The position numbers were made by a program, and so were the translations under genes. A DNA stretch of 64,000 nt, taken from the NCBI GenBank assembly GCA_965197585.1, contig OZ240215.1:128001-192000 (forward strand). Reading direction: 5' to 3'. Under the pieces are notes generated by a model. It was not told the origin of the DNA. It ran no database searches and was given only the letters and a program-made list of their open reading frames with translations. The DNA is from Dehalococcoidia bacterium (GTDB lineage Bacteria; Chloroflexota; Dehalococcoidia; Plut-88900). Shown here piece by piece: positions 15,056-64,000 of the stretch. How positions within the stretch are numbered: position 1 is the stretch's first letter; each line of letters begins with the position of its first letter.

Positions 15056-15108
15056 CTACAAGTTCAGAACACATATCAATGCGAAAGTTCTTGATTTTGT
15101 CCAGTTTG
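15056..15108 (-). repeat. recombination-site-like arm A
   Basis: GAAAGTTCTTGATTTTGTCCAGTTTG (15083-15108) is identical to 40256-40281. Minus strand reads NWTKSRTFALICVLNL*. Confidence 0.75.
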
Positions 15109-15763
15109 TTGAACTGTGTTTGACTGTAGGCATTACCATTTCCGAGTTTCGCCTGAAGCTGTCATGACAAGCAAGTCGCTTGGATACATCGCCACCACCG
15201 CAAATAATCACTCGGAGATTGTCACACAGAATCTAGCTTGAGACCTCCTTCGGATGCAGATTACCTATTCACGTATGCGTCAAACGAGGGTATCTGCGGT
15301 GAGCTCCGCGGCGTAACCAAAGGACACGTGCTGCAACGTCACTTCAGTCACTATCTGTGGCATCCGACATTCCTCTTATTACGTACCCCAAGATAACTAC
15401 ACTCAATACGACAGAACATTACAGGACTTGTAGTAAACAAAGACAGTGTGCTAGCATCCCGCTAGGCCGTGGGCAGGATGCCAGGAGGTGTATGTGGTCT
15501 TCACTTATTTGTCCCTCACCTAATTCCTTGCTGGCCTATCGTTTCCGTGATCTTGCCTCTACTGCCCTAACCTTCTCCCTCCCACTTCCTCCTCGGATGC
15601 ATCACACCGGAAACGCTCCAATTGCTTCAGCGCGATGCAGTTACCGTCCATTGTGACCCGTATTGCTTACCGATACCGAATAGGAGTCTTTTATGTGCCG
15701 TTCTAAGGTCTGCCCATCACAATCCTTGGGGCAGTTGGGGCCGTTGTTTATGAGGAGGATCCA

Positions 15764-18235
15764 GTGAAACAATTCGTGGCTAATCGGAAGGGACCTTGGC
15801 AAAAGCGGCTCCTGTACATCGGGATTCTAAGCATCACGTTGCTGGCCCTGCTGGTATTCGCAACATGCGGTGACGATGATCCAGAAGAAATTCCCGGTAC
15901 GGCTACTTCCGTCGCGGTAGCTCCCACGCCCGAAGCGCCTGGCACTACCCTGAGGCCGAGGAGTGAGTGGACCGAGGAGGCTCCTGCTACCAGGGCCGAG
16001 ATAGAAGCTGAACTGGGGAAGTACAGGGGTAAGAGCATCAGCGTCCTAGACGGCGGCGGCGCTTGGCAAGCCGCCCACCGCAAGGCTTATTACATTCCCT
16101 TCCAGGAGCAGTTCGGCATCGAGATCATCGAGGACACCGCCTCCTCCATCGTCGGCCAGATCCGCGGCATGTCGGAGACCGGCAACATCACCGTGGACAT
16201 CGGTGTCTGGGGCATTGACGTCGCCATCCAGCTTGGCCGCTCGGGCCACGCCGCAGAACTCGACTACTCCGTCATCGACCTGCGAGACCACTTCCCCGAT
16301 CTGGTGGAGGCCGGTAAACCCTACATCGCCGGCGGGGGAGACATTTTCTCCACAGTAGTTGCCTACAGCACCGAGTCCTTCCCCGATTCCGGCCCCCAGC
16401 CCTCCACTATGGCTGACTTCTTCGACTTGGAAGAATTCCCCGGCAAGCGGGGTATGTGGAGCTTCTGGCAGATCAACCCCCACCTCGCCTACATTGCCCA
16501 GCACCCCGAGGTCTTCGATAACCCTGGTGCCCTTGCTTCGCTCTCCAGCCTCACCGACGCCCAGATGGAGGAGGCCTGGACCTACCTCGACGATTTCGTC
16601 GCGAGAGCAGGCAGCGACTTCATCACCTGGGACAGCGGCTCCGACTGCCCAGCCCTCTTGATAGCTGGTGAACTGGATCTCTGCACCACCTGGAACGGTC
16701 GTATCTACGACGCCGTAGTCGCAGACGATGCGCCCATCAACATCTGCTGGGAATGCGGTCACGTCATGGACGCCGACTACTACTTCGTCCCCAACGGGCT
16801 GAAAGAACTTGACGCCGAGAGATGGGAGATGGCCCAACTCTTCCTGGCATGGATGTCCTTCCCGGACATCAACGCCCAGGAGTCCCTGTACATCCCCTAT
16901 GGACCCGTGAACCAGAAGGCCCTGCCACTCCTCGATGACCCGGCCTGGGATCACATCAGGGATGCCCTGCCCACTGCCCCCGACAACGCCCAGTACGGCC
17001 TCTTCCTCGACTCCTCCTGGGCCGGGGCCACCGCAGATGCTGCCCAGGAACGTTGGTCTTCTATCCTGCTGAGACAAGAACAACCTGAAGCACCTGGCAC
17101 GACGCTGAGGCCCAGGAACGAGTGGACCGAAGACGCCCCTGCTACCAGGGCCGAGATCGAGGCCGAGCTAGGCAAGTACAGGGGCAAAAGCATCAGCGTC
17201 CTGGACGGCGGCGGCGCTTGGCAAGCGGCCCACCGCAAGGCCTATTACATCCCCTTCCAGGAAGAATTTGGCATCGAGATCGTCGAGGACACTACATCAT
17301 CCATCGTCGGTCAGATTCGCGGCATGTCCGAGACAGGCAACATCACCGTAGACATAGGGGTATGGGGCATTGACGTTGCAATCCAGCTAGGCCGTTCGGG
17401 CCACGCTGCAGAGCTCGATTACTCCGTCATCGACCTACGAGACCACTTCCCCGATTTGGTAGAGGCTGGTAAACCCTACATCGCCGGTGGCGGAGACATC
17501 TTCTCCACCGTAGTCGCTTACAGCACCGAGTCCTTCCCCGATTCCGGCCCTCAACCCTCCACAATGGCCGACTTTTTCGACCTGGAAGAATTCCCTGGCA
17601 AGCGGGGTATGTGGAGCTTCTGGCAGATCAACCCGCACCTCGCCTACATAGCCCAGCACCCCGAGGTCTTCGAAAACCCTGGTGCCCTTGCTTCGCTCTC
17701 CAGCCTCACCGACGCCCAGATGGAGGAGGCTTGGACCTACCTCGACGACTTCGTATCGAGAGCCGGCAGCGACTTCATCACCTGGGACAGCGGATCCGAC
17801 TGCCCAGCCCTCTTGATAGCCGGTGAATTGGATCTCTGCACCACCTGGAACGGCCGCATCTACGACGCGGTAGTGGCCGACGATGCGCCCATCAACATCT
17901 GCTGGGAGTGCGGCCACGTCATGGACGCCGACTACTACTTCGTCCCCAATGGGCTGAAAGAACTCGATGCAGAGAGATGGGAGATGGCCCAACTCTTCCT
18001 AGCTTGGATGTCCTTCCCGGACGTCAATGCCAGGGAGTCCCTGTACATTCCCTATGGGCCCGTGAACCAGAAGGCCCTGCCACTCCTCGATGACCCGGCC
18101 TGGGATCACATCAGGGATGCCCTGCCCACTGCCCCCGACAACGCCCAGTACGGCCTCTTCCTCGACTCCTCCTGGGCCGGGGCCACCGCAGATGCCGCCC
18201 AGGAACGCTGGTCTACAATCCTACAAACCAGATAA
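15764..18235 (+). CDS. PotD-like ABC substrate-binding lipoprotein with two tandem near-identical SBP domains
   Basis: Lipobox-like VFATC; repeat units 15929-17083 and 17084-18232; GGAWQAA, FFDLEEFPGKRG, WNGRI and YGPVN motifs. Confidence 0.9.
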   Translation: MKQFVANRKGPWQKRLLYIGILSITLLALLVFATCGDDDPEEIPGTATSVAVAPTPEAPGTTLRPRSEWTEEAPATRAEIEAELGKYRGKSISVLDGGGAWQAAHRKAYYIPFQEQFGIEIIEDTASSIVGQIRGMSETGNITVDIGVWGIDVAIQLGRSGHAAELDYSVIDLRDHFPDLVEAGKPYIAGGGDIFSTVVAYSTESFPDSGPQPSTMADFFDLEEFPGKRGMWSFWQINPHLAYIAQHPEVFDNPGALASLSSLTDAQMEEAWTYLDDFVARAGSDFITWDSGSDCPALLIAGELDLCTTWNGRIYDAVVADDAPINICWECGHVMDADYYFVPNGLKELDAERWEMAQLFLAWMSFPDINAQESLYIPYGPVNQKALPLLDDPAWDHIRDALPTAPDNAQYGLFLDSSWAGATADAAQERWSSILLRQEQPEAPGTTLRPRNEWTEDAPATRAEIEAELGKYRGKSISVLDGGGAWQAAHRKAYYIPFQEEFGIEIVEDTTSSIVGQIRGMSETGNITVDIGVWGIDVAIQLGRSGHAAELDYSVIDLRDHFPDLVEAGKPYIAGGGDIFSTVVAYSTESFPDSGPQPSTMADFFDLEEFPGKRGMWSFWQINPHLAYIAQHPEVFENPGALASLSSLTDAQMEEAWTYLDDFVSRAGSDFITWDSGSDCPALLIAGELDLCTTWNGRIYDAVVADDAPINICWECGHVMDADYYFVPNGLKELDAERWEMAQLFLAWMSFPDVNARESLYIPYGPVNQKALPLLDDPAWDHIRDALPTAPDNAQYGLFLDSSWAGATADAAQERWSTILQTR

Positions 18236-23480: not shown

Positions 23481-23694
23481 CTAATTTCCGAAGCGGAAGA
23501 GTTTTGCGGCGGTTGAGTATACGAACTTAGTCTGCTCGTCTGCCGGAATATCTTTCAGGATCTCGCCCAGGACCTGCTGGGAACGGGGCCAGGTCGACTC
23601 TCTGTGGGGATAGTCGGAGCCCCACATGATGTTGTCGACGCCAATCAAGTCTCGGTGGGTCATTCCGATGAGGTCCTCGGTGAAGTTTACAAAC
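23481..23694 (-). pseudogene. C-terminal remnant of an amidohydrolase-2 protein, cut by IS30
   Basis: IGVDNIMWGSDYPHRESTWP...TAAKLF; ends at the IS30 terminal repeat. Confidence 0.8.
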
Positions 23695-24684
23695 TGTGGA
23701 TTCACATTTGAAGTGCAACACGCTTTCCAAAAAGATCTCTGGCGGAGTCCTGTAGCCCAGGCACTTGCGCGGGGTATTGTTGTAGGCCTGAATCATCTGC
23801 GTAAACCGCTCCTGGGGCAACGTCGCCAAGTCCGTCTTGCGGGGCAGAGTTCGCCGCAACCGGCCTATAGCGTTCTCCACCCCGCCCTTCTGCCAGGGGG
23901 AGTGGGTATCGCAGAAGAAGGTCTCGATGCCCAGTTCGTGGAGCCGGTAATGGAGTGCAAACTCGGTCCCGTTATCGAAGGTCACCGTCCGGTGCCATTC
24001 AGGCGGCATCTGACCGAGCACCTGCGACATGGCCCCTGCGATGGGCCTGGATGCCTTGCCAGGGGGCCTGAGCGCTATGAGGATGCGGGAATAGCGTTCG
24101 TGCATGGTCAGCACCGCATGTCCATAGGTACTGAACAGCATCAGATCCGCCTCCCAATGCCCGGGAGTGCGGCGGTCAGCAGCACTCTGCGGACGCTCGG
24201 CAATCGGGCGCCGCATAGCCATGAAGGAGGCAGGACTGACCCCTTTGCGCCCTCGCCAGCCCCGCTTCGACTTGGCTCGAGGAAGGTAGTGTCTCCACCC
24301 ATAGTTCTTCTTCCGAGCCATCTGGCCATATATGAATCGGTAGATGCTCTCATGGGAGATGACCCTCTTGCCTGACTCCATCGCCAGCCGACCCGCCACC
24401 TGCTCCGGAGACCAACCCTGCTTGAGCCGACAGAGCACCTGCTCCCGCAGACCCCTGTCCCGCTCCAACCGGGACCCGCTCCATCGCCGGGCATGCGCCT
24501 GTTGGTACGCATACCTGGGCTCGTATCCCTGGGTTCTTGAACCATTGCGCTTCAGATCCCGAGCAACTGTCGATGGCGAGCGATCCAGACTTGCCGCGAT
24601 TTGGCGGACTGAGTATCCCGCGGCTTGTAGTCGGGCCACTTCACATCGCTCTTCAATGGTGACATGTCCATAACTCTTTCCCAT
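23527..24684 (-). CDS. IS30-family transposase (reads through the IS end into flanking DNA)
   Basis: HTH, WSPEQV, GHWEAD, TFDNGTEF, PWQKGGVEN and NNTPRKCLGY motifs. Confidence 0.93.
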   Translation of the reverse strand: MGKSYGHVTIEERCEVARLQAAGYSVRQIAASLDRSPSTVARDLKRNGSRTQGYEPRYAYQQAHARRWSGSRLERDRGLREQVLCRLKQGWSPEQVAGRLAMESGKRVISHESIYRFIYGQMARKKNYGWRHYLPRAKSKRGWRGRKGVSPASFMAMRRPIAERPQSAADRRTPGHWEADLMLFSTYGHAVLTMHERYSRILIALRPPGKASRPIAGAMSQVLGQMPPEWHRTVTFDNGTEFALHYRLHELGIETFFCDTHSPWQKGGVENAIGRLRRTLPRKTDLATLPQERFTQMIQAYNNTPRKCLGYRTPPEIFLESVLHFKCESTVCKLHRGPHRNDPPRLDWRRQHHVGLRLSPQRVDLAPFPAGPGRDPERYSGRRAD

Positions 24685-25453: not shown

Positions 25454-26601
25454 TTAGCCGGTCAGGTAGTCCGCCCACTGCTTCATGAGTGTGCGCCGCC
25501 GCTCGAAGAGGTCGGACCTGGCGTAGGCCTGCTCAGTGGAATTGCTCAGGGTGTGGGCATGGGCCGTCTCTGAGACGGCCCACGGGGTGTCCGTTTGCTC
25601 CAGCGTCCAGTTCTTGAAGCTGCTGCGGAACCCGTGGACAGTGGCACGATCCGCCAGGCCGACCGAGCGGAGCACCTTCGTCAACGTCATGTCGGACATC
25701 GGCGTCCCCGGCTTCAGCGGGGACGGGAACACTAGACCGGTGTCTTCACGCAGTGTAGAGGCTTCACCAAGCAGGTCGAGTGCCTGTCCGCTGAGGGGGA
25801 TCCGATGCTCCATGCCTGCCTTCATCCGTTCAGACGGTATCCGCCAAACCTGGTCTTGGAGGTCGATCTCGTCCCAGATTGCGCCCCTGGCTTCACCGGA
25901 GCGCGCCGCCGTGAGAACCAGGAATCGGAAGCACAACTTGGCGGACATCGAAGCTTGGGACGCTGCAACCGTCTCGAGCGCTGCCCCGGCTTCCTGATAG
26001 GGCAGCGCTCTGAAGTGTGCCTTCACCTTCGGCATAGTGGGCAAAGCGCCGTCGACAGCTTCGCCCGCCGGATTGGACTCCATGAACCCGTATGATATTG
26101 CCCATTTGAAGACGGTCCTCATACGCTGACGGACCCGACGGGCCGTCTCCGGACGAGTTGTCCATATCGGGGTGAGGACTTGCAGCACATCCCCGCGGTC
26201 TATCCGGTCCAGGGGCGTGTTTCCCAGAACCGGCATTGCATGACGCTCCAGGGTCTGAATCCAGCCTGCAGCGTGCCTGGGATTGCGCCAGCGGGGCTTG
26301 TTGGCCTCATGGACGGCATAGGCGGCTTCCCTGAAGGTCGGCATCGCAGGCGCGTGCTTTTCGGCCACAGGATCCCTACCTTCCGCAATGGCGGCGCGGT
26401 AGTCCGCCGCCTTCTCGCGAGCAAGAGCCAGACTTACGGACGGGTATCCGCCCAGGCCGATATCTCGTCGGCGTCCGTCTACGGTAATGCGCAGGACCCA
26501 TGACTTGTGTCCCGCTTTGCAGATATAAAGATGCAAGCCTCCGCCATCGGAGTATCGCCCCGGCTCCTCAGGGCCTTCACCCGCGTCGTCGATAACGTCA
26601 C
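25454..26601 (-). CDS. P4-type tyrosine integrase with Arm-DNA-binding domain, probable N-terminal frameshift
   Basis: PGRYSDGGGL, IGLGGYP, TAARSGE, HGFRSSF and AYARS motifs. The native-looking start GTG 26601 (RBS GGGAG; MTLSTTRVKAL) is out of frame with the body. Confidence 0.88.
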
Positions 26602-26748
26602 AGATCTCCCTCTCTGTCCCGAGCTGTTCCCACATCTGAGATGGGAGACATCAGGAACCGGGAAGCGCGCCTAGATGCACGATGAGGGTTGATCAGCCAT
26701 GCAATAAGGGTGTCTTGGGACAATAAGGGCCAAGGAAATAAGGGATAG

Positions 26749-26767: not shown

Positions 26768-27397
26768 AGGAGTTAGCTACGGAATACCTGCAATTTAGTG
26801 CCCATTCCCACAACGCTTACCACACTTATAGGTCGAAGGTAACGCTCCCTGAAGATCACCTCGCAATGTATGGTAACACGCCTTCTCCTATGACTATGAC
26901 CGGAGTGACTGAATCTGGCTTGCGGAACGCATTTAAGTGTCGGTCGCGTAGGGCCTTGATTAGAGGTTCGGGTCTGGTCAGGTACATCTAAGCGTATTGT
27001 ACTGCGAACTTTTCGGTGGGTCGTGTCAATCTAAGTAGCCGCCTCATAGGCCGCAAACGGTTATTGCCGGTAGACAGACCCATCTTCGAGATGTGGCTGG
27101 CCTGATGAAGCTACAAGAATCTGATGTAGATATTATGGTCAAGCCGCATAATGACGGCTATGCCTACTACGTACAGGGGAGAGCCCATTAACCAGGAGTG
27201 GCCTTGCATGAACTCTTCGGTGTAGTTCGCAGATCATCAAGACACTGAGTTGGGATGCTAAGCGGAGTGAGCCTATTATTAGGCTGTGCTCCGGAGTATT
27301 CCCGAAGGCTCACTTCCGTGCCGGCCATTTCATGGTGGGAGGTCAGGGTATCACTCACCACAAGGTAAATGAACTAATGGAACTGCAGGACTACCTA

Positions 27398-38376: not shown

Positions 38377-39368
38377 AAGGCGGGCTCCGGGGTGCGACGG
38401 GTGACGTCTACGAGGCATGCTGCGGAGTGTCCGGGCCGCTTTAGCTCCAGGAGCGGGTCAGTGTGAGCGCAAGCGTCTATGGCAAAGGCGCATCGTGGGT
38501 GGAAAGAGCATCCCGCAGGTCGGTGGGCCAGGTCGGGGGGTGCGCCCTCGATGGGGACGAGTTGCTCCCTGATAGACTCGTCTAGGCGAGGGACGGAGGC
38601 GAGGAGGCCGAGGGTGTAGGGGTGGCGGGGAGTCCCGTAGACGTTGTGAGCGGAGGAACTTTCGACGATTCTGCCGGCGTACATGACGTTGACGGAATCG
38701 GCGTAACGGGCCACGACGCCGAGGTTGTGGGTGATGATGACTACTGCGGTGCCGCGCTCCTTGGAGAGCCGGCTGATGAGCTCGAGGAGTTGGGCCTGTA
38801 TGGTGACGTCGACGGCTGTGGTGGGTTCGTCGGCAAGGAGCACTTTAGGCTCGCAACTGAGGGCCATGGCCACCATGACGCGTTGCCTCATGCCACCGCT
38901 CATGCGGTGGGGGTAGTCGTCGAGCCTGCGTCCGGGGTCGGCTAAACCGACCTCTTCGAGGAGCTCACCGGCGCGGGTGTTGGCGGCTCTTCCGGAGAGG
39001 CCGAGGTGCACTTCGAGGGCCTCCGTCATTTGACGGCCGATGGTGAGGACGGGGTTGAGGGAGGTCATGGGCTCCTGGAAGATAATGGCGATGTCCTTGC
39101 CGCGCCGGCGTCTCATCTGGTCGTTGCTGAGCTTGAGCAGGTCTTGGCCGTCGAGAAGGACCTCACCTTCGACGATCTCGCCCGGGGGTGAAGGGATGAG
39201 GCGCATCAGGGAGAGAGCGCTGACGGTTTTGCCGCACCCGCTCTCGCCGACAAGGCCCATTGTTTCCCCGGCCCTGAGAGAGTAGGAGATGCCGTCGACG
39301 GCCTTGACCACACCGTCCTCGGTGTAGAAGTAGGTCTTAAGGTTTTTGACCTGTAGGAGCGGTGGCAT
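38373..39368 (-). CDS. DppD/OppD-type ABC ATPase
   Basis: [22 protein letters not shown] and HPYT motifs. Confidence 0.95.
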
Positions 39369-39469
39369 GGTTTGTTATTTGTGGCGGGGGACTTGGGGTG
39401 GGGTGGGAATCACTAATGACAAGTTTACCAGTGAAGGGGATGGAATCGGCAAGCAGGGGAAGGTAATGG

Positions 39470-40110
39470 GCGATCAGGCTTTGGGATCTACTCGTGAAGT
39501 AGGAGGTGAATTCCCTCACCAAGGTGGAGAAATCTCACCACAACCTGCTGGAAATGGTGCTGCCGGGAATCGACTAGTTCGAACTGATGAAGCGCATCGT
39601 GCGGATCACCATTGCGCCGGCGGCCTTCCTTCGTTCCGGGACGGGAATCAGAACATCGCTCGGGCCTTCGAAAAGGGGGCCGACGACTACATCATGAAGC
39701 ACTTTTCCTCCACAGAACTGGTGGCGGAGAGTCAAGGCGTCCCTGCACAGGCGAGGGGTCGCATGGAGTGTGCCTCTCGAACCCTATGTGCTGAGGGACC
39801 TGACCATCAATTATGGAAACGTCTAGTGACTGGAGGGGGCCGCTCGGTGAAGCTGATCCCGACCGAATAGAAGCTTCTATTCGAGCTTTCGGTTCACGCC
39901 GGACGAGCATTGACCAACGATCAGCTACTGCGACGGGTCTTAGTACAGAGAGAGCCGGGCGATCCACAGGTGGTACGCGCCTAAGTGGGACGTCTCAGCG
40001 GCAGGCCGAGAGACCACGCCTACAGCCCAGACTACACCTTCAACGAGTCCCGGGTGGACTATCGCATGGCCAAGGGCGAGACGCAGGAACGGGAGGAGCC
40101 GTGTCCTTTG
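39470..40110 (+). pseudogene. decayed OmpR/KdpE-family response regulator
   Basis: Fragments LPGID*FELMKRI, RAFEKGADDYIMK-x-FS-x-x-ELVA and L-x-PTE*KLLFEL...LTNDQLLRRV, with stops and frameshifts. Confidence 0.7.
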
Positions 40111-40228
40111 GGGCGCTGAATGGCCGAAGACTCCCAAACCGAACACCCCCGCTGCCCTGCGGCGGCATCTGAGGCAACCCGCCAGTCAACGGTAGGCTTT
40201 CACCTGACCATGTATGTCCAGCACCAGT

Positions 40229-40281
40229 TTACAAGGCCAAGACGAATACCAAAGTGAAAGTTCTTGATTTTGTCCAGTTTG
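40229..40281 (-). repeat. recombination-site-like arm B
   Basis: 26 nt identical to arm A; minus strand reads PNWTKSRTFTLVFVLAL*. Confidence 0.75.
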
Positions 40282-41067
40282 GTGGGGAGTGAACAAGCCC
40301 ACGAACCCCACTACACCCGCCAGGGACACCGCGGCGCCTGCCAACACCCCCGCGGAGGACAACGCTACTAATCGGGTAGTTTTGGGGCTGGCCCCCAGCT
40401 GCCAGGCAAGCCGGTCGCCTAGTACTAGAAGGTTCAGCCGCCCTGCCGCCAGGACTGCGAGGCCTAGTCCGAGAGCAAGGTAAGGAATCGCCGGCGTGAC
40501 GTCTTCCCAACCTCGGTTGGACAAACTCCCGCTGAACAGGGACAACGCTTGCAGGCTGAAAACTCGTGCGTGAGTGAGGATGGCTGCGGCGATTGCCAGA
40601 GTCAGAGCCCCTATGGATACTCCAACTAAAGCGAGTCGAGTCGGGGTCAGGCTTTCCCGTGAAGCCAACAGGAATATGAGAAGGGCGCCGATAAGTCCCG
40701 CGGCAACCGAAAGGGAGGTTAGTCCCCAGGCCCCCACTGTAATCGCCCCGGATAAGGCCAAGGCCTGGACGATGGATGCCCCACCGCCCAACCCAAAGAT
40801 CTGGGGGTCTCCCAGTGGGTTTCGGGTAGCGCTTTGAATCAGCGATCCCGCAGCGCCCAGACACGCACCTGCCACCAGCGCTGCTACGACCCTGGGAATG
40901 CGTAGGGAACGAACTATTACCTCGGCGGTGGGGTCTCCACTGTCGGTGAAGAGGGCCTTAAGGAGTGTTGAGGCGTCCAGGTTCGCACTGCCGAAAGCGA
41001 TCCCGACAATGCAGCCTCCCAGTAAGGCAACGGCGAGGCCAGTCAGAACCAGGATCGGGCGTCGCAA
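40282..41067 (-). pseudogene. FecCD/BtuC-type iron-chelate permease, 3'-truncated at arm B
   Basis: RIPR, TRNPLGDP and GFVGLFTPH motifs, then an abrupt switch to arm sequence; the last TM helices are missing. Confidence 0.8.
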
Positions 41068-52599: not shown

Positions 52600-53076
52600 T
52601 TGAGGGCTAAAGAAGGCGTAGTTGAACGCCTGAATAACATACTGACGATTGACCTGACGGCCATAAACCAGTACTTCATCCATTCGGAGATGTGCAAGAA
52701 CTGGGGTTTTAACCGGATGGCCCACAGCCTCCGGTCCAACAGCTTCGAGGAGATGAAGGATGCCCAGAACCTGATCCAACACGTCCTCTATCTGGAGGGA
52801 ATCCCTAACCTGCAAAGGCTCAATCAGGTAAAAGTTGGGGAGTCGGTCCTGGAGGACCTACAGCTGGATCTTCAGTCGGAGAAAGAGGCGGTTGAGATCC
52901 TAACGGAAGCGATCACACACTGCGTACGGGTGGAAGACTATACGACCCGAGGCCTGCTCGAAGGGATGGTGCGCTCAGAGGAAGAGCACATCGACTGGCT
53001 TGAGACCCAGTTGGAAACCATAAATACCATAGGACTGGAACTGTACCTCAACCAGCAGATCCACGAAGACGACTGA
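52600..53076 (+). CDS. bfr: bacterioferritin
   Basis: AINQYFIH, EEMK, LEG-x-PNLQ and EEEHIDWLETQ motifs. Confidence 0.95.
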   Translation: MRAKEGVVERLNNILTIDLTAINQYFIHSEMCKNWGFNRMAHSLRSNSFEEMKDAQNLIQHVLYLEGIPNLQRLNQVKVGESVLEDLQLDLQSEKEAVEILTEAITHCVRVEDYTTRGLLEGMVRSEEEHIDWLETQLETINTIGLELYLNQQIHEDD

Positions 53077-53471: not shown

Positions 53472-53583
53472 TCACAGCGCAAGTCTATACCTAAGTAAAA
53501 GAGTTCTCGATTTTGTCAAGTTTGTTGGCCCCAACCGCATAAATGACAGAACCTTTTCGGTGAGGTTCAGGATAGGCCTTCAG
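53472..53583. repeat. double (inverted) recombination-site-like arm C
   Basis: Left arm on minus reads RTLLLRYRLAL*; right arm on plus reads GPNRINDRTFSVRFRIGL(CAG). Confidence 0.7.
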
Positions 53584-54266: not shown

Positions 54267-54685
54267 CTGTGGCACTTGTCACGATATAGTTCATTAGAGT
54301 GGCAATCCTAAGCTAATATAGGATCCTCAACAATGTCGGCTTGAGAAACGGTAACTAATGCCCCCCACTCACTTGCCAATTACTCTCTTGGCTATACTCG
54401 CAGATTTGCGCTACGTCAGCTGCAGATCCGATCCACCTCCAACTTCTCCCTCACCGACCACCGCCCCGCCTCTCCCCACTCCAACCAAACCCTTGAATTC
54501 CGCTACCACAGAGGCTCTCGCTCAGAATCCAACCTCTAGCCCTGTTCCCGCATTTCGGTTTGCATGAAATTCGGCTTGCTCCCACATTATGGAGGCGAAG
54601 ATGTAATTGTAGGCGCGAAGCAAGACCAACGAAAGGTGTCCTTGAAGGAGTCCCGGATATACAAAAGAAGATTAGGAGGAAAAGT

Positions 54686-55837
54686 ATGCTCAGAATGGCA
54701 TTAGTGTTGCTGGTCATATCCGCCTTGGCCTTCGCCATGGCCTGCGGCGGGGGCGGAGCCAGCGACGACCTTAAGACCCAGGTAGTCGACAATTATGCCG
54801 CGGGTGCCCACGCGTCTTATGCCCGAAGCCTCGCTTCCGCAAGAGCGATGGATTCCGCCATTGATAGCTTCCTAGCTGCCCCGTCCCAGCACCGTCTGGA
54901 TGCCGCCAAGTACGCCTGGCTACTGGGCCGCGACGACTACGGAGTCACCGAGATTTACCGCTTCTACGATGGCCCAATCGACAACGAAGAGGACGGCCCT
55001 GAGGGCCTCATCAATGCCTGGCCTCTGGACGAGTCCTACATAGACTACGTCGAAGGCGCCCCGAGCGCCGGCATCATAAACAACCCCGAGGAATTCCCGA
55101 CCATCGACGCTGATTTGCTGGTATCTCTTAACGAGGTAGGCGGTGAAGAGAACGTCTCTACCGGTTGGCACGCCATCGAGTTCCTGCTGTGGGGTCAGGA
55201 CCTCAACGCCGACGGCCCCGGCTACCGCCCGGTTGAAGACTACACGGTCAATGAGAACGCAGACCGCAGGGCTGCCTACCTTCGCGTGGCTTCAGACGTC
55301 CTGCTGGGCCACATGCAGGACATGGTCGACGCCTGGGCCCCGGGCGAGGGCAACTACCGCGCGCAGTTCGTGTCCAAGGACTCCGACGAGGCTATAACGG
55401 ACATAATCACCGGTATCGGAGAGATGAGCCGGGGTGAACTTGCGGGCGAGCGCATGACCGTAGCTTACGAGGAGAGGTCGCAGGAAGATGAGCATTCCTG
55501 CTTCTCCGACAATACCACCGCCGACATCATTGCCAACGCAGTCGGCGTCCAGCGGGTCTACTTCGGAGACTACGGCGACGTTAGCGGCCCCGGCATCATG
55601 GACCTGATCGCCGCCGAGGACGAGGCTCTCGCCGAGACCCTGGCAAACGAGATCAACCGTTCCGTCGCATTGGCAAGGTCTATTCCTATTCCTTTCGACA
55701 GACACCTTGCCGAGGGCCTCGCGGACTCCGACCAGGGGCGCAAGGCGGTGCTTGCAACAATTGAAGCTCTGGAAGACCAGACCGATACGATTGTCCAGGC
55801 AGCCGAGAACGTTGGCATTACCATCAGCGTAAGCTGA
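54686..55837 (+). CDS. imelysin-like (peptidase M75/IrpA) iron-regulated lipoprotein
   Basis: AGGAGG RBS, AMAC lipobox, INAWPLDE, GWHAIEFLLWGQD, ELAGER and EDEHSCFSDNT motifs. Confidence 0.92.
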   Translation: MLRMALVLLVISALAFAMACGGGGASDDLKTQVVDNYAAGAHASYARSLASARAMDSAIDSFLAAPSQHRLDAAKYAWLLGRDDYGVTEIYRFYDGPIDNEEDGPEGLINAWPLDESYIDYVEGAPSAGIINNPEEFPTIDADLLVSLNEVGGEENVSTGWHAIEFLLWGQDLNADGPGYRPVEDYTVNENADRRAAYLRVASDVLLGHMQDMVDAWAPGEGNYRAQFVSKDSDEAITDIITGIGEMSRGELAGERMTVAYEERSQEDEHSCFSDNTTADIIANAVGVQRVYFGDYGDVSGPGIMDLIAAEDEALAETLANEINRSVALARSIPIPFDRHLAEGLADSDQGRKAVLATIEALEDQTDTIVQAAENVGITISVS

Positions 55838-55843
55838 TTTAGC

Positions 55844-57265
55844 ATGCACCATTCCGGGTTGGTGATTAGGTTGTGGTCACGGCCGCTGACAGCAGTGCTT
55901 CTCGTGGTCGTGATCACAACTGCCATCGCCTGTGGGCAGGATGAATCGGACGTTGATCTGGATGAGGTCTACAACGTCCTTCTCGGCGGAGAGACCACTG
56001 CCTTCAGTGCCGGTACGAACGCCTTCGAACTCTCCGCCCGAAACCTGACCAACGAGCTCCGACGCACCTTTGAAGTGGGCGACAGCTTCTTTAATCAGAA
56101 TTGGGTTGCCGCGCCCGCAAGCACCGTGGCCCGGGACGGTCTCGGCCCCACCCACAACGCCCTGTCCTGCTCCTCCTGCCACAGCCACGACGGTCGTGGC
56201 AAACCACCTGATGGCCCCGACGACCCGGAACGGGGCCTCCTCATCAGGCTGAGCATCCCGGGCCCCGACGGTCCCATAGACGATCCTGTATACGGAGGCC
56301 AGTTGCAGGACAGGGCTATTCTCCTCGTGCCACCCGAGGGTCGCGTGCTAATCACGTACGAAGAAATGCCGGGAACGTATCCGGACGGCACGGAATACAG
56401 CCTCAGACTTCCAGTCTATACTTTCGAGGGCCTTGCCTTCGGCCCATTGCATTCTGAGATCATGACCTCGCCGAGGGTGGCGCCCGCCGTCATAGGAATG
56501 GGGCTCCTGGAGGCCATCCCGGAAGAGGACATACTTGCGCTCTCTGATCCCGACGACGCCGATGAGGACGGCATTTCCGGACGCCCGAATAACGTTTGGG
56601 ACATCCGCCGCGGCGAGAAGGTGGTCGGCCGTTTCGGTTGGAAAGCGGGACAACCTACTGCAGAGCAGCAGGCTGCCGGTGCATTCTTGGGAGACATAGG
56701 AATAACTTCCACACTATTCCCAGACGATAACTGCCCGACTGTCCAAGAAGCATGTCTGGCTGCACCCGATGGCGGCGAACCGGAGATCCCCGACGAACGT
56801 CTGCAAAAGGTTGCAGTTTACCTCCAGACCCTGGCCGTTCCGGCCATGCGCAACACGGAGGATGAGACGGTTCAGCAGGGCGCCACGCTATTCGTACGCT
56901 CCCAGTGTGCCGCATGCCATACCACTCGCTACGAGACCGGAGATACGCACCCCGTCGAGCCGCTCCGCAGCCAGGTCATATTTCCCTTCACAGACCTCCT
57001 ATTGCACGACATGGGCTCCGGCCTAGCAGATAACCGGCCCGAGGCTGATGCAACCGGTAGCGAATGGCGTACACCCCCCCTGTGGGGTATCGGATTGGTC
57101 GAGACTGTAAACGGGCATACAATGTTTCTGCACGACGGCCGCGCCCGAAGCTTGGAAGAGGCCATCCTCTGGCACGACGGCGAGGCAGCCGGGTCCCGTG
57201 ACCTCTTCATGAGCCTGACCGCAGAAGAACGTGAAGCGCTCATCAAGTTCCTGGAGTCACTGTAA
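55844..57265 (+). CDS. di-heme oxidoreductase (DHOR) family lipoprotein
   Basis: DGLGP, CSSCH, GRFGWKA, CAACH, WRTPPLWG and LHDGRAR motifs. Confidence 0.92.
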   Translation: MHHSGLVIRLWSRPLTAVLLVVVITTAIACGQDESDVDLDEVYNVLLGGETTAFSAGTNAFELSARNLTNELRRTFEVGDSFFNQNWVAAPASTVARDGLGPTHNALSCSSCHSHDGRGKPPDGPDDPERGLLIRLSIPGPDGPIDDPVYGGQLQDRAILLVPPEGRVLITYEEMPGTYPDGTEYSLRLPVYTFEGLAFGPLHSEIMTSPRVAPAVIGMGLLEAIPEEDILALSDPDDADEDGISGRPNNVWDIRRGEKVVGRFGWKAGQPTAEQQAAGAFLGDIGITSTLFPDDNCPTVQEACLAAPDGGEPEIPDERLQKVAVYLQTLAVPAMRNTEDETVQQGATLFVRSQCAACHTTRYETGDTHPVEPLRSQVIFPFTDLLLHDMGSGLADNRPEADATGSEWRTPPLWGIGLVETVNGHTMFLHDGRARSLEEAILWHDGEAAGSRDLFMSLTAEEREALIKFLESL

Positions 57266-58351
57266 GTGCGGTACAAACTGAGCAAGATATTCCCGGTATC
57301 GATTGTCATCGTCCTTCTAGTTGTGGCGTGCGGTTCGGGTGGCCCTTCCGACAAGGACGTGATGATAAGTCTCACGGATAACGTAGTGATTCCCGCCTAT
57401 GAAACAGTTGCTGAGGATGCTTCCCAGCTGGACCGAGACGTACAGACCCTGTGCGGTGCTCCAGATGATGGATCATTGCGGGCTGCCCGGGAGTCCTGGC
57501 GCAAAGCAGTAAGGTCCTGGAGTTACTCTGAGGCGATGTGGTTCGGGCCCGTAATGGACCGGCGGTCGCTGCGACTTCTCGACTGGTCCCCTACCGACAC
57601 CGCCGCTATCGATGAACTCCTCGCCAAAAGATCATCTATCTCCATTGATGAGGTCAGGGAGGTGCTGGCTTCCAACCAGCGCGGGTTCGGGGCTATCGAA
57701 TACGCATTATTCGACAACCTTGCCTTGCCGAATCTCAGCGGTTCCCCCATTTATTGTGCTTATCTAACTGCCCTGACCCTGGTTGTGCAACAGGAGACTG
57801 CAGCCATTCTTTCCGATTGGGCGACCGGGTCTGATCGCGCTCCATACAAGGACTACTTTACCGACCGCGCCGATATCACCCTTGTTCCCAGTGACGCCGT
57901 AGCAGAGGTAATTCGTACTCAAGTCTTTCTAATTCGCAGCATGGTGGACATGCGGTTGGCCTCGGCCCTGGGCCTCCGGGACACCTCCCCCGACCTGACG
58001 GCCATTCCCGGAAACGCCGCCGACAACGGTCTGCAAGACCTCCGCAACGAGATCCTCGGAATGCAGGCCGTATACGAGGGGGTGGGGCAGGATAAATTGG
58101 GTATTTCAGCCCTTGTTGCCCATCTATCCGAAGATACCGATACTCGGATGCGAGGCCAGTTCACCGCTGCCATTGAAGCTATAGACTCAGTGGAGGGCTC
58201 GCTTCGACAGACCCTCTCCAAAAACCCCACGCGTATCCGTGCTGTCTACGACCGCCTGTCCGATGTCCAGCGTACCATTTCCACTGAAGTAGTCAGCTTG
58301 CTTGGCGTCTCCGTCGGTGTCAGTGAATCCGACGGAGACAGCCTGCGCTAG
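57266..58351 (+). CDS. second imelysin-like lipoprotein
   Basis: VVAC lipobox, FGP, RGFGAIEYALF and C-terminal SDGD. Confidence 0.85.
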   Translation: MRYKLSKIFPVSIVIVLLVVACGSGGPSDKDVMISLTDNVVIPAYETVAEDASQLDRDVQTLCGAPDDGSLRAARESWRKAVRSWSYSEAMWFGPVMDRRSLRLLDWSPTDTAAIDELLAKRSSISIDEVREVLASNQRGFGAIEYALFDNLALPNLSGSPIYCAYLTALTLVVQQETAAILSDWATGSDRAPYKDYFTDRADITLVPSDAVAEVIRTQVFLIRSMVDMRLASALGLRDTSPDLTAIPGNAADNGLQDLRNEILGMQAVYEGVGQDKLGISALVAHLSEDTDTRMRGQFTAAIEAIDSVEGSLRQTLSKNPTRIRAVYDRLSDVQRTISTEVVSLLGVSVGVSESDGDSLR

Positions 58352-58360
58352 AACGCCTCA

Positions 58361-59806
58361 ATGTCTTTCTTAGGCAGTGTCGGTGCGCACCATGTAGGCA
58401 CAGTACGCCCGAGGATTGGCGCCTGGGGCTTGGCCGACAAAGTGATCCGTGCCGGGTCTGAGCCCGTCTCCCCTGCATCGGCGGCCATCTTTCGTATCAT
58501 ACTCGGTGTTGTTGGTGTTTTTGCAGTCTTACGGATCGCCGCCAAAGGCTGGATCTCGGAACTGTACATAGAGCCTGCCCACCACTTTAGCTACTACGGT
58601 TTCGGCTGGATCCAACCTTGGCCCGGGTGGGGTATGTACCTCCACTTTGCCCTTCTCGGACTGGCGAGTCTCGGTGTGGCCCTGGGCTACCGCTACCGGC
58701 TGTCGATAACCGCTTTCTTCCTTCTCTTCACCTATATCGAGTTGATCGATAAGACCACTTACCTGAATCACTATTATTTCATTAGCCTGGCCAGTTTCAT
58801 CATGATTTTCTTGCCCCTTCATCGCGCCTTTTCTTTGGATGCCCGGATAGGGACGGAGAACGAAAGACCGTCGATTATCCCCGGGGCAACTCTCTGGATG
58901 CTCAGGGCGCAGGTCGGTGTAGTCTACTTCTTCGCGGGCGTTGCCAAGCTGAATCCCGATTGGCTTTTCCACGCCGAGCCCCTCGGTATCTGGCTTTACA
59001 ACAGCTCCGACACTGTACTTATCGGCCCGTTCCTCAGGGAGTCGTGGGTCGCCTATGGTATGAGTTGGGCCGGGGCCTTCTTTGACTTGACCGTAGTCGG
59101 CTGGCTCTTGTGGTCCAAGTCTCGTCCTTTCGCCTACGCTGTCCTCATATTATTCCACCTTTTGACGGCACTCATATTCCCTACCATTGGCGTATTCCCC
59201 TTGATAATGACCGGGTCTGCCTTAATTTTCTTCAGTCCTGACTGGCCTGTTCGATTGGTCAGACGTTTACGTTCTCTTCCGGATGAGCCAGGAACCCCCG
59301 GTCATCTCACAGCAACCGGCGCGCGGACAGTCTCCTGGCTGGCCCGAGCGGCCCTCCTCCTCGCTGTTGTCTTTTTCACAGTCCAGGTCGCCATTCCTCT
59401 GCGACATTTTGCTTACCCCGGCAACGTCCGATGGACCGAGGAGGGTTATCGCTTCTCTTGGAGGGTGCTCGTTACCGAAAAGACGGGGTTGGTCAAGTTC
59501 CGAGTTACCCCGGAGGGTGCTGGGGAAGAATGGTTCGTCTACCCGGAGCAATACTTGACGCCTCTTCAAGTCGAGCGGATGGCCTACCAGCCGGACATGA
59601 TACTGGCCACCGCCCACATCATTCGAGACGGCTACGGCTATAAGGGGTACGAAGGCGTTGAAGTCCGTGCCGACGCCTTCGTCACGTACAACAGACGTCC
59701 TTCAACCCGCCTGATAGATCCGAACGCCAATCTGGCCAGCGTAGAAGCAGGTATTGGGCCCAAGCGTTGGATTCTTCCCCCTCCAAACGGGCCGCCCCTA
59801 AACTAG
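58361..59806 (+). CDS. HTTM-domain / vitamin K-dependent gamma-carboxylase-like membrane protein
   Basis: FRI-x-x-G, YLNHYY, SLDAR, YFFAGVAKLNPDW, RFSWRV and LIDP motifs. Confidence 0.88.
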   Translation: MSFLGSVGAHHVGTVRPRIGAWGLADKVIRAGSEPVSPASAAIFRIILGVVGVFAVLRIAAKGWISELYIEPAHHFSYYGFGWIQPWPGWGMYLHFALLGLASLGVALGYRYRLSITAFFLLFTYIELIDKTTYLNHYYFISLASFIMIFLPLHRAFSLDARIGTENERPSIIPGATLWMLRAQVGVVYFFAGVAKLNPDWLFHAEPLGIWLYNSSDTVLIGPFLRESWVAYGMSWAGAFFDLTVVGWLLWSKSRPFAYAVLILFHLLTALIFPTIGVFPLIMTGSALIFFSPDWPVRLVRRLRSLPDEPGTPGHLTATGARTVSWLARAALLLAVVFFTVQVAIPLRHFAYPGNVRWTEEGYRFSWRVLVTEKTGLVKFRVTPEGAGEEWFVYPEQYLTPLQVERMAYQPDMILATAHIIRDGYGYKGYEGVEVRADAFVTYNRRPSTRLIDPNANLASVEAGIGPKRWILPPPNGPPLN

Positions 59807-59954
59807 TGTTCGGATATTCTGCCTCGGCTGACGAGGCTGCGCCCAAAGAGAAATGGCCAAGTCAGACTATCCTTCACTCTCTATCCAATAGCGCTCTTTG
59901 CCGCTCTCGATCGGAGCTGCCTGGCAAATCTTCACGCCGGTTACGCAATAAGCA

Positions 59955-60515
59955 CCAAACTCTGCACTACTCCTGGGCAACAGAACTGAACTCCCCTTCG
60001 GAGAGCTAGCTGACCGAGGGTTCACTTCTTAAGCCTTGGCGAATGCTAGTTCGAAGGTTGTAGGCATGCGGAGATACATACAGCATCTTTCTCTCAAAGA
60101 GAGGTGAGATTGAGAGGGGTAATCGCAGACTCACGCATGATCATATTGTAGGATAGGCCCTGCCAATTTAAGCTCGGAGGAATCCCATGGAAGCGTATTG
60201 TGTGAAGTGCCGGTCCAAGAGGGAGATGAGTAGCCAACAGGCCATTACGATGAAGAATGGGCGCCCGGCCACACGGGGTGTCTGCCCAGTCTGCTCCACA
60301 AGGATGTTCCGGATTGGCAAAACCGCATAGTCCAGCGGTCTGCAACTGACGAGATATATCCGCTTTAGCAGGGACCTCTTGCTACTATCTGAGCTACCGG
60401 TTGTCCTGCTCAGTCGGTTCTTGGTGGGTTTCGCACGACGTGGGAGGACAGGAGTTTGACTACAGGTCCAGCACGAACCTCAAGGAGAAGGTTATCCAAT
60501 TCGTCCAGTTGTTGG
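59955..60515 (+). repeat. duplicated block, copy 2 (leader + DUF5679-like gene + arm D)
   Basis: Collinear with 14545-15110; arm D on minus reads NWTNWITFSLRFVLDL* (stop 60460-60462). Confidence 0.85.
60187..60330 (+). CDS. 47-aa DUF5679-like zinc-ribbon protein
   Basis: GGAGG RBS; MEAYCVKCRSKREM...KNGRPATRGVCPVCSTRMFRIGK. Confidence 0.87.
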   Translation: MEAYCVKCRSKREMSSQQAITMKNGRPATRGVCPVCSTRMFRIGKTA

Positions 60516-60827: not shown

Positions 60828-60973
60828 GGTGGCCGGTATATGGATGGGATAATGTCGATAAATTCAAAACACATCCCGTCAACTGCTGACCCGACCCATT
60901 GACACTCCCTCTCTCTCTTGGGAACCTTCTGCCGTGGGCAAATCAAGGGAGTTCTCAACCAGCGAAATGCCCC

Positions 60974-61456
60974 CTATCTCTGCTTGTCTTTGATGAACGA
61001 TGCACACCACTCAATCGCGTCTCCAGTCAATGTGGTGATAATAAGAATTGCTGGTATCGTGATAGCAAACAAACCGATAGCAGCAGCAGGCGCTAACAAT
61101 GGGAAAGGCTCCCCGTTAGTCTGGTCAAGAAGTAGATTCCATGTAGCCAATAAAGCTAATAACGCACCAGCAAGGCGTGTTAACCACGGCGCTATTCTGG
61201 TAAAGATTTGGGCGTTGCCATTTGGGAGCAGTTCGTAGAACAGTGCAACTGCGCCCCCAAATGCAAACATCACTCCCTTGACGCCATAGCTGTAATCGGC
61301 ATCCAGTCCGTCTCCGAATTGTAGCCTCAAGGCCATGACTATCCCGAGGAAAGAGACTAGGACTTTTACCATAGGCAACATCACGCTAGTCAGCCATCGG
61401 GTAGGTTGTTGTTGAGTCTGTTCTTCTGATTTTGCAAACTGTCCTGTCATGGTCAA
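60974..61456 (-). CDS. hypothetical 4-TM membrane protein
   Basis: 160 aa, four hydrophobic segments, AAGGA RBS. Confidence 0.6.
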   Translation of the reverse strand: MTMTGQFAKSEEQTQQQPTRWLTSVMLPMVKVLVSFLGIVMALRLQFGDGLDADYSYGVKGVMFAFGGAVALFYELLPNGNAQIFTRIAPWLTRLAGALLALLATWNLLLDQTNGEPFPLLAPAAAIGLFAITIPAILIITTLTGDAIEWCASFIKDKQR

Positions 61457-61734
61457 TTTCCTTGGGGTGGCTTTCCTTCCATCATATCCAAAGTTCGAAT
61501 TCGTTCTTAACCAGCGAAATTTCCCGTCCCCGTTTTCCCTGCCTTTCAGCCCCCAAACCCCCTTCTTTCACGCCTATACTTGACAGAACCATCATTATGC
61601 ACCTTCCTCAGCCCCACGGAGGCCATAGGACAACGCCGGTCCAGGGCATTAGAACGCGGGGTGCGGGCCGGAGTTCCACGGAATGAATAGAGGAAATAAG
61701 TCTACAAAGTCTCCCCTGAAAGAAAGCCTCAGCC

Positions 61735-61850
61735 CTACACACTAAGCACAAAACTCAGCGTGAAAGTTCTCTATTTTCCTCAGGGGTTTTGGGCCTAATT
61801 GGAGAGTAGCCAGTACCGCCTTCGAGGTGTGGTTCGCCTTGCCGGGCTAG
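61735..61850. repeat. double recombination-site-like arm E
   Basis: Minus reads RTFTLSFVLSV*; plus reads GPNWRVASTAFEVWFALPG*. Confidence 0.65.
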
Positions 61851-62011
61851 CCACGTCTTGTAGCTGCCCGGTCGAGAGAACGTCCTGCCACAATGGCATG
61901 TGCCGGCGACAACTACGCCGTTGCTAGAACGAAAATCTCCGTCCCGGGCCCCGGGCCGTCCGCATTGCCGTTAAGCCAGTCGCCCAGTTTTAAGGATAAA
62001 GACCTGGTGCA

Positions 62012-63505: not shown

Positions 63506-63824
63506 TGTACATTCCTTGCCATCTAGCTTTCAGTCGTTGTTTCTACGGAGGAATGACCGGCTTGTGCTTCTTCAGCATGTCTGGCTCCAAGCCCCTAGTC
63601 TGCACTTGGCTCAGCCGGACCCGAGGGCGACAACCCTACCGCAACGGGCAGTCGATCTACAGGACTGCTCGTGGGTAGGGCATAGACGGCTCACTCTTCC
63701 CGAGCGCCTACAGCACAGCGCAACCGGGAATCCGGTAGGGCCTTGTAGGGGCGTACATGTGTACGCCCCTACAAGGCCCACCAGCCTGAATTCGAACCAC
63801 CGACCTTACTATCCGCTCCGACGG

Positions 63825-64000
63825 CTAAAGGGCTAGACCAGAACTCATAGAAAAGGTTCTGCCTTTAATACGGTCGGGGTCACCTGCCCGGATTCGAAAC
63901 GAAAAGAACGCCTCGCCATTTATGGCAACGTTGCCTAGATTGACACAACCCGTCGAAAGGTTCTCTCTGCCGTACCGTTTGGCATGCCGACGGGCAGGAA
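63825..64000. repeat. recombination-site-like arms F and G
   Basis: Minus reads RTFSMSSGLAL* (63860-63825) and RTFRRVVSI* (63964-63935); G matches RTFRWVVSI* at 27005-27034. Confidence 0.6.

Follow-up and report, generated by a model that had tools for sequence, protein, structure and literature searches.

A stretch of 64,000 nucleotides from a Dehalococcoidia bacterium (hereafter the window; bases 128001-192000 of a single contig, OZ240215.1, of 3.43 Mb and 59% G+C) contains repeated copies of an element that resembles one half of an attachment (att) site and that we call the arm. From an AGAAC motif at its edge each arm can be read as a short peptide, the tail, of the pattern RTFxLxFxLxL, and most tails end at a stop codon in a fixed position. 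Which protein, if any, ends in this tail, and why does the tail accompany a recombination site? A preliminary description of the window had proposed that recombination fuses the tail to a recombinase in one state only, as a C-terminal swap or a degradation switch. The analysis described here supports the identification of the arms as P-type half-sites of attachment sites of large serine recombinases (LSRs) and shows that LSR genes do exchange their C-termini by recombination. Coding is the best explanation for why the tail is conserved, and its joining to a recombinase would take place in an excised circle.

The seven tails initially reported, which begin at 15091, 40264, 53507, 60495, 61770, 63860 and 53548, are translated exactly as given, including the last one, RTFSVRFRIGL, which is followed by CAG (Q) instead of a stop. 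A shorter peptide, RTFR(W/R)VVSI*, initially described as a second class and here called b-type, is also encoded twice, as RTFRWVVSI* at 27005-27034 (plus strand) and as RTFRRVVSI* at 63964-63935 (minus strand). A repeat search assigned five copies (15091, 40264, 53507, 60495 and 61770) to one family, D4; with a profile built on ten genomic copies, nhmmer found these five class-1 copies at E-values from 3.4e-13 to 2.7e-3 and about ten further copies elsewhere in the genome. The grouping of all seven arms in one class stands as far as the AGAAC-YTT motif and the tail pattern are concerned, which are common to all, but not for the half-site: the arms at 63860 and 53548 have a half-site of the class GACCGTAT.AA.G.CAGAAC (C-type, or second-class, half-sites), unlike the other five. 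The arms of the window are oriented on the minus strand, except the right half of a back-to-back pair at 53472-53583 (one b-type arm, at 26984-27034, is also listed on the plus strand), and the series of arms extends past the window, to 217 kb.

For the analysis of conservation we used 56 non-identical arms from this genome and from related genomes (designated G001 etc., with loci from them designated L001 etc.) and 26 distinct arms from metagenome contigs, 82 arms combined; the metagenome arms were found by a pattern reaching codon 3 only, the rest of the tail not being part of it. In the frame of the RTF peptide (F1), the first stop is codon 12 in 42 of the 56 arms (TAG 26, TAA 12, TGA 4) and in 24 of the 26 metagenome arms, that is, in 66 of 82 distinct arms as compared with 5 of 246 control windows of 36 nt taken immediately downstream of the arms. 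The fixed stop that uses TAG, TAA and TGA, first noticed in the window, thus extends to many genomes and is far beyond chance.

Entropy and BLOSUM62 scores were calculated for 45 of the 56 arms, those with a stop or a Tyr codon at position 12. At the second positions of codons 5, 7, 9 and 11 the entropy is 0.26, 0.50, 0.00 and 0.43 bits, respectively, reflecting a near-invariant T; the first and third positions of these codons have 1.0-1.7 bits, codons 4, 6, 8 and 10 are variable at every position, and the entropy rises to about 1.9 bits right after the stop codon. No indel is present in 42 aligned arms. The mean pairwise BLOSUM62 score per site is 2.27 in F1, 1.44 in the antisense frame that shares its wobble positions with F1 (frame R) and at most 1.2 in the other four frames; internal stops are found in none of the 45 arms in F1 and in two of them in R. 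A codon-position analysis of many arms had been set in advance as a test of protein-level conservation, and both the periodicity and the conserved stop are present; the invariant second-position T in alternate codons, the lack of indels and the end of conservation at the stop support the protein-level conservation initially proposed. The tails mostly end L-[A/D/E]-[L/V] and the transfer-messenger RNA (tmRNA) tag of this genome ends ALAA, which is a resemblance only.

Simple periodicity is unable to tell F1 from R, because the two frames share wobble positions. The tail might therefore be coded on the opposite strand, the arms being leftover 3' ends of genes like those of LSR-B (LSR-A, LSR-B and LSR-D are LSR families as named in this analysis), which would read ...Y-K-x-N-L-N-L-S-V-K-V-L-D-F-V-x-S-G-G towards the tRNA; the shared wobble would then make the F1 peptide and its stop a mirror image, since a Tyr codon preceded by a pyrimidine reads as TAG or TAA in the complement. 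Within the half-site R does read the LSR-B-like peptide KVLDFV.SGG, which is homologous to the true LSR-B C-terminus SVLDFVQSGPP; at 53.5 kb it looks LSR-like further upstream as well (...TYTIP...), and in most arms it has a Tyr opposite the F1 stop and is free of stops. Past VLDF, however, the R peptide is unlike LSR-B (PMPSDGVTRESAS), and its BLOSUM62 score is well below that of F1. The invariant second position of F1 is the first position of R, while the variable first position of F1 causes radical changes in R (K/N, S/R, T, I/M). In place of the Tyr, R has a stop in three arms and His in another three, although F1 keeps its stop there, and the R reading frames are 31-159 aa long, never of LSR length. 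Codon 3 is a conserved TTY in the arms and GAG stands at that place in LSR-B gene ends, which puts this codon outside the recombinase binding site. Beyond the half-site the data favour F1 over R, and we consider coding on the opposite strand quite improbable.

Alternatively, the tail might be a cis-acting DNA or RNA element: it might bind an accessory or directionality factor, extend the LSR footprint, or act as a substitute 3' trailer or hairpin for the tRNA gene, whose own downstream flank is displaced by the island. The arms come straight after tRNA CCA ends, the tail pattern is kept at LSR-D loci despite an out-of-frame LSR (see below), and a 6-bp hairpin GAACCT/AGGTTC is possible, with at least 5 of 6 pairs at a fixed position in 41 of 82 arms (in a control partner region, taking the best over a 17-position scan, 5/6 pairs were reached in 13 arms and 6/6 in none). 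This hairpin, though, has no compensatory changes and its observed pairing was reached by 500 of 500 shuffles, RNAalifold predicted no consensus pair for 42 arms, and no Rfam family reached its gathering threshold in the window. Single T's that recur every 6 nt, at the second positions of codons, are unexpected for a binding site, and in 66 of 82 arms conservation ends at a position that holds TAG, TAA or TGA and no other triplet. We therefore find a cis-acting role unlikely and coding in F1 the best explanation for the conservation of the tail.

The claim that the arms are att-like is upheld by the anatomy of the sites, which supports their assignment as P-type half-sites of LSR attachment sites. 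Five 50-bp sites in G006:C3, from one of the relatives, have the form GTTCT-N40-AGAAC, imperfect inverted repeats around the asymmetric core GGCCCACC, and the back-to-back pair of the window has the same form. In large serine recombinases, a P-type half-site exceeds a B-type one by about 5-6 bp. To the left of 16 of the 82 arms lies a canonical tRNA 3' end (T-arm, acceptor and CCA), and the spacing from GTTCG to AGAAC is 34 nt in all 16; it is 40 nt for the 21 arms whose left partner is an LSR-like (P-type) half-site. This difference identifies the arms as P-type, the tRNA-arm junctions as attL/attR-like and the 40-nt sites as attP-like. Two arms begin inside a genuine tRNA gene, within its CCA end: tRNA-Lys(ttt) (1831692-1831766) in one case, tRNA-Ile(gat) (3170312-3170388) in the other. 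The tRNA targets seen comprise Ile, Lys, Val, Ala, Glu and Met.

Exchange at the core can be followed at the 40-kb arm, which interrupts a FecCD permease gene. Homology of this gene to intact genes of five relatives stops at window base 40282, and base-by-base reading in G001, G002 and G008 finds normal coding sequence continuing where this genome has the arm. On the arm side, homology to G002 (93.6% over 1.6 kb) starts at the core, while the left flank differs. Core exchange without long duplications is thus found at both the FecCD and the G002 junctions; the missing 3' part of the FecCD gene was not found in this genome. The DNA downstream of the FecCD operon of G001 corresponds to 3173057-3173482 of this genome (L001 5057-5482), 2.7 kb from the tRNA-Ile gene with its arm. 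This apparent relocation to 3.173 Mb suggests, as far as sequence comparison goes, a large rearrangement between LSR sites.

This genome has four LSR genes, and no serine recombinase gene was found in the window. Three of the four are of the LSR-A type and read ...V(L/M)STV..G.P, then continue without a stop: two through an antisense tRNA-Glu and the third through a tRNA-like remnant and an antisense second-class arm. LSR-B is 54-60% identical to LSR#1 of this genome and ends ...SVLDFV.SGPP, its last ten codons being the exact inverse of the class-1 arm; both LSR-A and LSR-B have the domains Resolvase, Recombinase and Zn_ribbon_recom. The LSR family is abundant in 40 relatives, with up to 33 matches in one genome, and in this genome and in dozens of cases in relatives the LSR reads to ...VLSTVK.GGP or ...VLDFV.SGPP and then directly across the core. 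Since the frames cross the crossover core, the C-termini of LSRs depend on the partner half-site. The partners seen after the core are an antisense tRNA (e.g., ...SWTRTRDLSLIRTAL-stop), an antisense convergent LSR, an arm with its tail, or unrelated flanking DNA. Among 80 LSR-B loci from public genomes, whose record titles name Dehalococcoidia or Chloroflexi metagenome-assembled genomes, 31 have a convergent LSR gene within the locus, while the frame ends in an A-type arm tail in 16 and in a short B-arm tail (RTFI.(R/Q)TQ-stop) in two; five stop at most one codon from the core and 26 have other flanks. Often an LSR-A and an LSR-B gene converge, with an overlap of 50-170 nt at a 50-bp att-like site, and their frames extend through the antisense strand of the partner for up to about 100 codons. 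Such pairs are seen, for example, at L066 1486-3156 (+) with 4601-2985 (-), and in G006:C3 at 24821, 58951 and 86826. An intact LSR-A of 545 aa (L265) ends in the A-type tail RTVFELRLGSL-stop, 12 codons counted from Arg, and two N-terminally truncated LSR-A reading frames without the catalytic domain (L127 and L128) end in the class-1 tail. These genes support a C-terminal swap by recombination.

The two truncated frames belong to a set of four LSR-A-like frames from three relatives (L127 2374-3624 (+), L128 2383-3615 (+), L129 3015-1804 (-) and L130 2181-3461 (+)), all of which start at one point (...WITD(I/K)LAQEVTRGMRE..., about residue 146) and retain Recombinase and Zn_ribbon_recom, Resolvase being gone; to judge from the sequences, the common breakpoint suggests a site-specific event or a genuine DNA-binding-only derivative. 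At two LSR-B 3' ends (L133 and L134, from G006 and G008) the frames continue past the core into adjacent genes: one makes an open frame of 1072 aa and the other enters a small gene that appears to resemble a HicB-type antitoxin. In the genome under study, a candidate A-type arm lies near 2,614,5xx at the end of a long reading frame, and the far ends of the LSR#2 and LSR#3 islands were not identified confidently.

The diversity of these C-termini also bears on the possibility that the tail has no role, being a neutral run-off that gives an early stop to frames entering the island, its likeness among arms reflecting recent common descent. What LSR frames encode past the core varies greatly and is often plainly accidental (antisense tRNA, or antisense LSR for up to 100 codons), so long or odd tails seem to be tolerated, and McMurdie et al. 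offered the same "trivial" suggestion for the Dehalococcoides gene dsiB (PMC3146451). A mere stop would not need F3, L5, F7, L9 and L11, though, and the alternating hydrophobic residues are kept across genera and in the metagenome set while the intervening codons and the third positions are free; moreover, the A-type arm tail has equal length and pattern. We hold a tail without any role to be very unlikely.

Several observations connect the class-1 tail to an LSR. The LSR-A frame, the LSR-B frame and the arm frame all read the common core CCA CCA as Pro-Pro, so a crossover at the core keeps the tail in frame. By pairing of coordinates in G006, an LSR-B gene lies 11-52 kb ahead of ten of the 12 class-1 arms, in the reading direction of the arm and on the same strand. 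In the first 100 kb of G006:C3, an arm pair at 11.5 kb, LSR pairs at 24.8 and 59.0 kb, an arm pair at 67.9 kb and an LSR pair at 86.8 kb share one core orientation, and this alternation is as expected of tandem islands that are each bounded on one side by a tailed arm and on the other by an LSR reading outwards. The island that spans 11.5-24.8 kb contains two methylase-like genes, a YaaC-like gene and LSR-B. At L266, in contigs of four sequencing runs of one sample, the summed depth is 500-6900 on the two LSR genes (12817-16000) as compared with about 20-650 on the cargo (1069-12816); in this sample LSR genes are far more repeated than any single island.

The reading we prefer, to which we assign a probability of roughly 0.55, is that the arms are the P' half-sites of the attP of LSR islands that target tRNA genes, and that the tail is the end of the recombinase frame. 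The islands would target tRNA 3' ends in Dehalococcoidia, the arms being the gene-distal attP half-sites. The LSR gene would traverse its own half-site (...V-L-x-x-V-x-x-G-x-P) and the crossover core, and its last 17 or so codons and the stop would sit beyond the crossover, on the P' arm, so that RTFxLxFxLxL-stop would be the conserved end of the LSR reading frame. In the excised circle, in which P is joined to P', the recombinase would carry the amphipathic tail; upon integration the tail would stay at the far end of the island, beside the tRNA, and the integrated LSR would end in whatever the partner half encodes: an antisense tRNA, an antisense neighbouring LSR or another arm. The arms of the window would then be ends or scars of successive islands in the same orientation that have lost their recombinase ends. 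We infer that in the circle an LSR, most likely LSR-B, is translated with the 12-codon tail as its end, and that the tail has a function, for instance in stability or directionality.

A number of results weigh against this reading. None of the 80 LSR-B loci has an intact LSR with the 12-codon class-1 tail, and neither do the LSR-A ends listed. In a database search with the N-terminally truncated LSR-A plus the class-1 tail, none of the 25 proteins scored among 35 candidates carried the tail (one 301-aa fragment ends in a b-type tail), and when words from the tail region of L010 were sought in proteins longer than 120 aa, two candidates came up and neither scored, which is weak evidence. No circle junction of an LSR-B end with an arm was seen in contigs of four runs from one sample searched with 16 kb of the G006 island, where contigs break at repeated sites and cannot show rare forms; the joints listed were unrelated. 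The arm pattern had no match in viral contigs, and no LSR-B gene was detectable in this genome with LSR#1 as the query. The in-frame relation follows from the fixed 45-nt geometry of the site and is not independent evidence of translation, and the antisense frame, sharing wobble with F1, is itself open in most arms. Finally, LSR-D (LSR#4 here, with one orthologue each in G003, G010 and G011) has a diverged arm with a 12-codon tail directly 3' of the gene, and in all four copies the gene is in a different frame and ends at a TGA inside the tail. These tails hold the pattern, with the stops TAG, TAG, TGA and TAA, which means that something besides fusion to LSR-D maintains the tail there.

The two linked proposals of the preliminary description thus fare unevenly. 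That recombination swaps C-termini is borne out by LSR frames that cross the core, but not for an intact LSR with this particular tail; that the tail lies in frame with the recombinase is correct for LSR-A and LSR-B at CCA CCA, but fails at LSR-D. Tailed LSRs are expected to be missing if fusion is confined to a transient circle; the central step is nonetheless an inferred one.

A more specific version, which we regard as doubtful, is that the tail acts as a sensor of state within the recombinase gene, so that only the excised circle encodes an LSR with an amphipathic C-terminal strand. This strand might mark the LSR for rapid proteolysis or gate its coiled coil; integration from the circle would then be favoured and re-excision from the chromosome restrained with no separate directionality factor. 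As several LSR types share the core and the frame, islands could swap tails when they insert into each other's sites, and if so, tail swapping would give tandem island arrays a combinatorial level of regulation.

The features of the window that belong to this system are collected in Table 1.

Table 1. Arms, tails and associated features of the window. Positions are those of the 64,000-nucleotide stretch.
Feature	Position	Strand	Evidence
Module of about 600 bp: arm, tail, spacer and DUF5679 gene (14777-14920, +)	14518..15111		repeats D2, D5, D10, D4; PF18930
B-type P' arm (half-site ...AACTGGACAAAATCAAGAAC) with tail RTFALICVLNL, TAG	15056..15111	-	repeat family D4; nhmmer E 3.9e-12
b-type P' arm (...GTATTGTACTGCGAAC) with short tail RTFRWVVSI, TAA	26984..27034	+	repeat I2
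B-type P' arm with tail RTFTLVFVLAL, TAA; fused at the core to the truncated FecCD gene	40229..40284	-	nhmmer E 3.4e-13
FecCD permease gene; Pfam match breaks off at position 250 of 311, exactly where the arm starts	40282..41067	-	
B-type P' arm with tail RTLLLRYRLAL, TGA; left half of back-to-back pair (orphan site)	53472..53527	-	E 4.5e-10
Second-class (C-type) P' arm with tail RTFSVRFRIGL, CAG instead of stop; right half of orphan site 53472-53583	53528..53583	+	
B-type P' arm, diverged (ATAAC), with tail ITFSLRFVLDL, TAG	60460..60515	-	nhmmer E 6.3e-8
B-type P' arm, diverged, with tail RTFTLSFVLSV, TAG	61735..61790	-	nhmmer E 2.7e-3
C-type P' arm with tail RTFSMSSGLAL, TAG	63825..63875	-	nhmmer E 0.24
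tRNA-like T-arm and acceptor fragment (GTTTCGAATCC...), immediately before the C-type arm	63876..63900	-	not called as tRNA
b-type P' arm with short tail RTFRRVVSI, TAG	63935..63985	-	repeat I2

The module at 14518..15111 recurs at 59927-60515 with about 86% identity, and the C-type arm at 63825..63875 is 93% identical over 43 nt to a copy beside LSR#1. ARAGORN found no tRNA gene in the window; the T-arm-like pieces beside second-class arms were rejected as tRNAs or known RNAs (ARAGORN and Rfam were negative) and are fragments only. The DUF5679 zinc-ribbon gene (47 aa) is present at 14777-14920 (+) and 60187-60330 (+) of the window and at 217138-217272 of the genome, about 135 nt past the tail stop at three arms, and no arm accompanies the fourth copy, at 1.09 Mb. 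It was rejected as a regular partner of the arms, as it is found beside three arms in this genome only and at none of the arm loci of relatives examined.

Short genes of unknown function alternate with arms between 60 and 64 kb, and an integron attC array was considered for this region; it was rejected given that there is no IntI, the arms are LSR gene ends and no hairpin is conserved. The sole tyrosine integrase of the window is P4-like with an Arm-DNA-binding domain, not IntI. Ends of a Tn7-like or other transposon, suggested by a likeness of GACAAAAT...GAAC to TnsB sites, were dropped, as LSR genes end in the inverted arm. The recombinases of the window are this integrase (25454-26635, minus strand; Arm-DNA-bind_3, Phage_int_M and Phage_integrase), 370 nt from the b-type arm at 26984-27034 (+), an IS30-like transposase (23527-24684) and an IS5-like transposase (11698-12651), so several kinds of mobile DNA meet in the region.

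Genes just inside the arms often look defence-like: an Mrr-type nuclease, an SMC/AAA ATPase, a 1741-aa AAA protein, an N6 methylase and MmeI/Eco57I-like methylases (L001 2460-3476; L002 15675-17480; L003 7958-13183 and 5881-6909; L136 12079-18122). Elsewhere in the window, an 823-aa frame at 15764-18235 (+) consists of two tandem copies of an SBP_bac_8 solute-binding protein with a period of 1155 nt (86% identity over 300 nt). At 39334-40172 (+), between the 40-kb arm and genes for oligopeptide ABC transporter ATPases, lies an apparently frameshifted OmpR-type response regulator, with a sub-threshold Trans_reg_C match in one 37-aa piece (Pfam 16.9 bits, cut-off 26.2). A cluster at 54560-59806 (+), situated between two arms, encodes an imelysin, a di-haem oxidoreductase, a second imelysin and an HTTM/vitamin-K-carboxylase-like membrane protein; together with the adjoining bacterioferritin gene (52600-53076) it looks like a putative iron-uptake set.

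In canonical LSR systems (Bxb1, phiC31, A118/LI, CcrAB), attP lies outside the int gene and the direction of recombination is set by a separate directionality factor. The LSRs described here share with them the domain set, the imperfect inverted repeat with an asymmetric core and a P half about 6 bp longer (40 vs 34 nt), but differ in that the whole attP lies within the 3' end of the gene. LSRs are valued as genome-engineering tools, and here each integration or excision rewrites the C-terminus of the enzyme.

Archaeal integrases of the SSV1 type are tyrosine recombinases that are split near the middle and inactivated by integration. As in SSV1, attP is inside the recombinase gene, tRNA genes are targeted and the gene would be whole only in the circle; unlike in SSV1, only about the last 17 codons are exchanged here and the catalytic and DNA-binding domains stay intact. 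In mycobacteriophages of the BPs type, attP is inside the repressor gene, the integrase is a tyrosine recombinase, and integration removes an ssrA-like tag and thereby changes the stability of the repressor. An attP within a reading frame and a C-terminus altered by integration, seen here in the partner-dependent LSR ends, are common to both systems; the split gene here is a serine recombinase and not a repressor accompanied by a tyrosine integrase, and the parallel with BPs would be one of logic, by analogy only.

The closest likeness is to the ssrA islands of Dehalococcoides, for which we draw on part of the paper by McMurdie et al. 2011 (PMC3146451). There, the 3' end of the serine recombinase gene dsiB overlaps attL in every case, its stop codon is found only outside the island, and DsiB alignments diverge at that place; the authors remarked that dsiB may be fully functional only on the circle or beside an island that supplies the 3' fragment. 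A C-terminal swap was thus already suspected for dsiB in 2011. The two systems come from the same bacterial class, have a CcrB-like LSR at the island edge and form tandem arrays by a small RNA gene (PMC3146451), and the stop lies outside the island both for dsiB in that source and for the LSR-A frames described here, which run through antisense tRNA genes. They differ in that many tRNA genes (Ile, Lys, Val, Ala, Glu, Met) are targeted here and in that several LSR types recombine at one another's sites, from which convergent overlapping gene pairs and back-to-back arm pairs result. Integration of the ssrA type, with its 20-bp direct repeat, was not seen in this genome, where no arm match lies beside the tmRNA gene (1082944-1083296). 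The ssrA islands have a six-gene integration module with the small recombinase DsiA; on our side one island of G006 has been annotated, with the gene content given above. A literature search for serine integrases with attP over the stop codon gave no title on the subject, a weak sign that the tail is unpublished.

Compared with what that source reports for dsiB, the present analysis adds a conserved 12-codon 3' fragment with a coding signature, cross-recombining LSR types and overlapping gene pairs. The arm with its tail provides a sequence signature by which the borders of islands and the scars of old insertions can be mapped in genomes of Dehalococcoidia, and the same sites account for the broken FecCD gene, the tandem islands with defence genes and the convergent overlapping LSR genes in relatives. 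With a conserved tail on the far arm, the remark made on dsiB in 2011 becomes testable, by comparison of the same enzyme with and without a defined tail.

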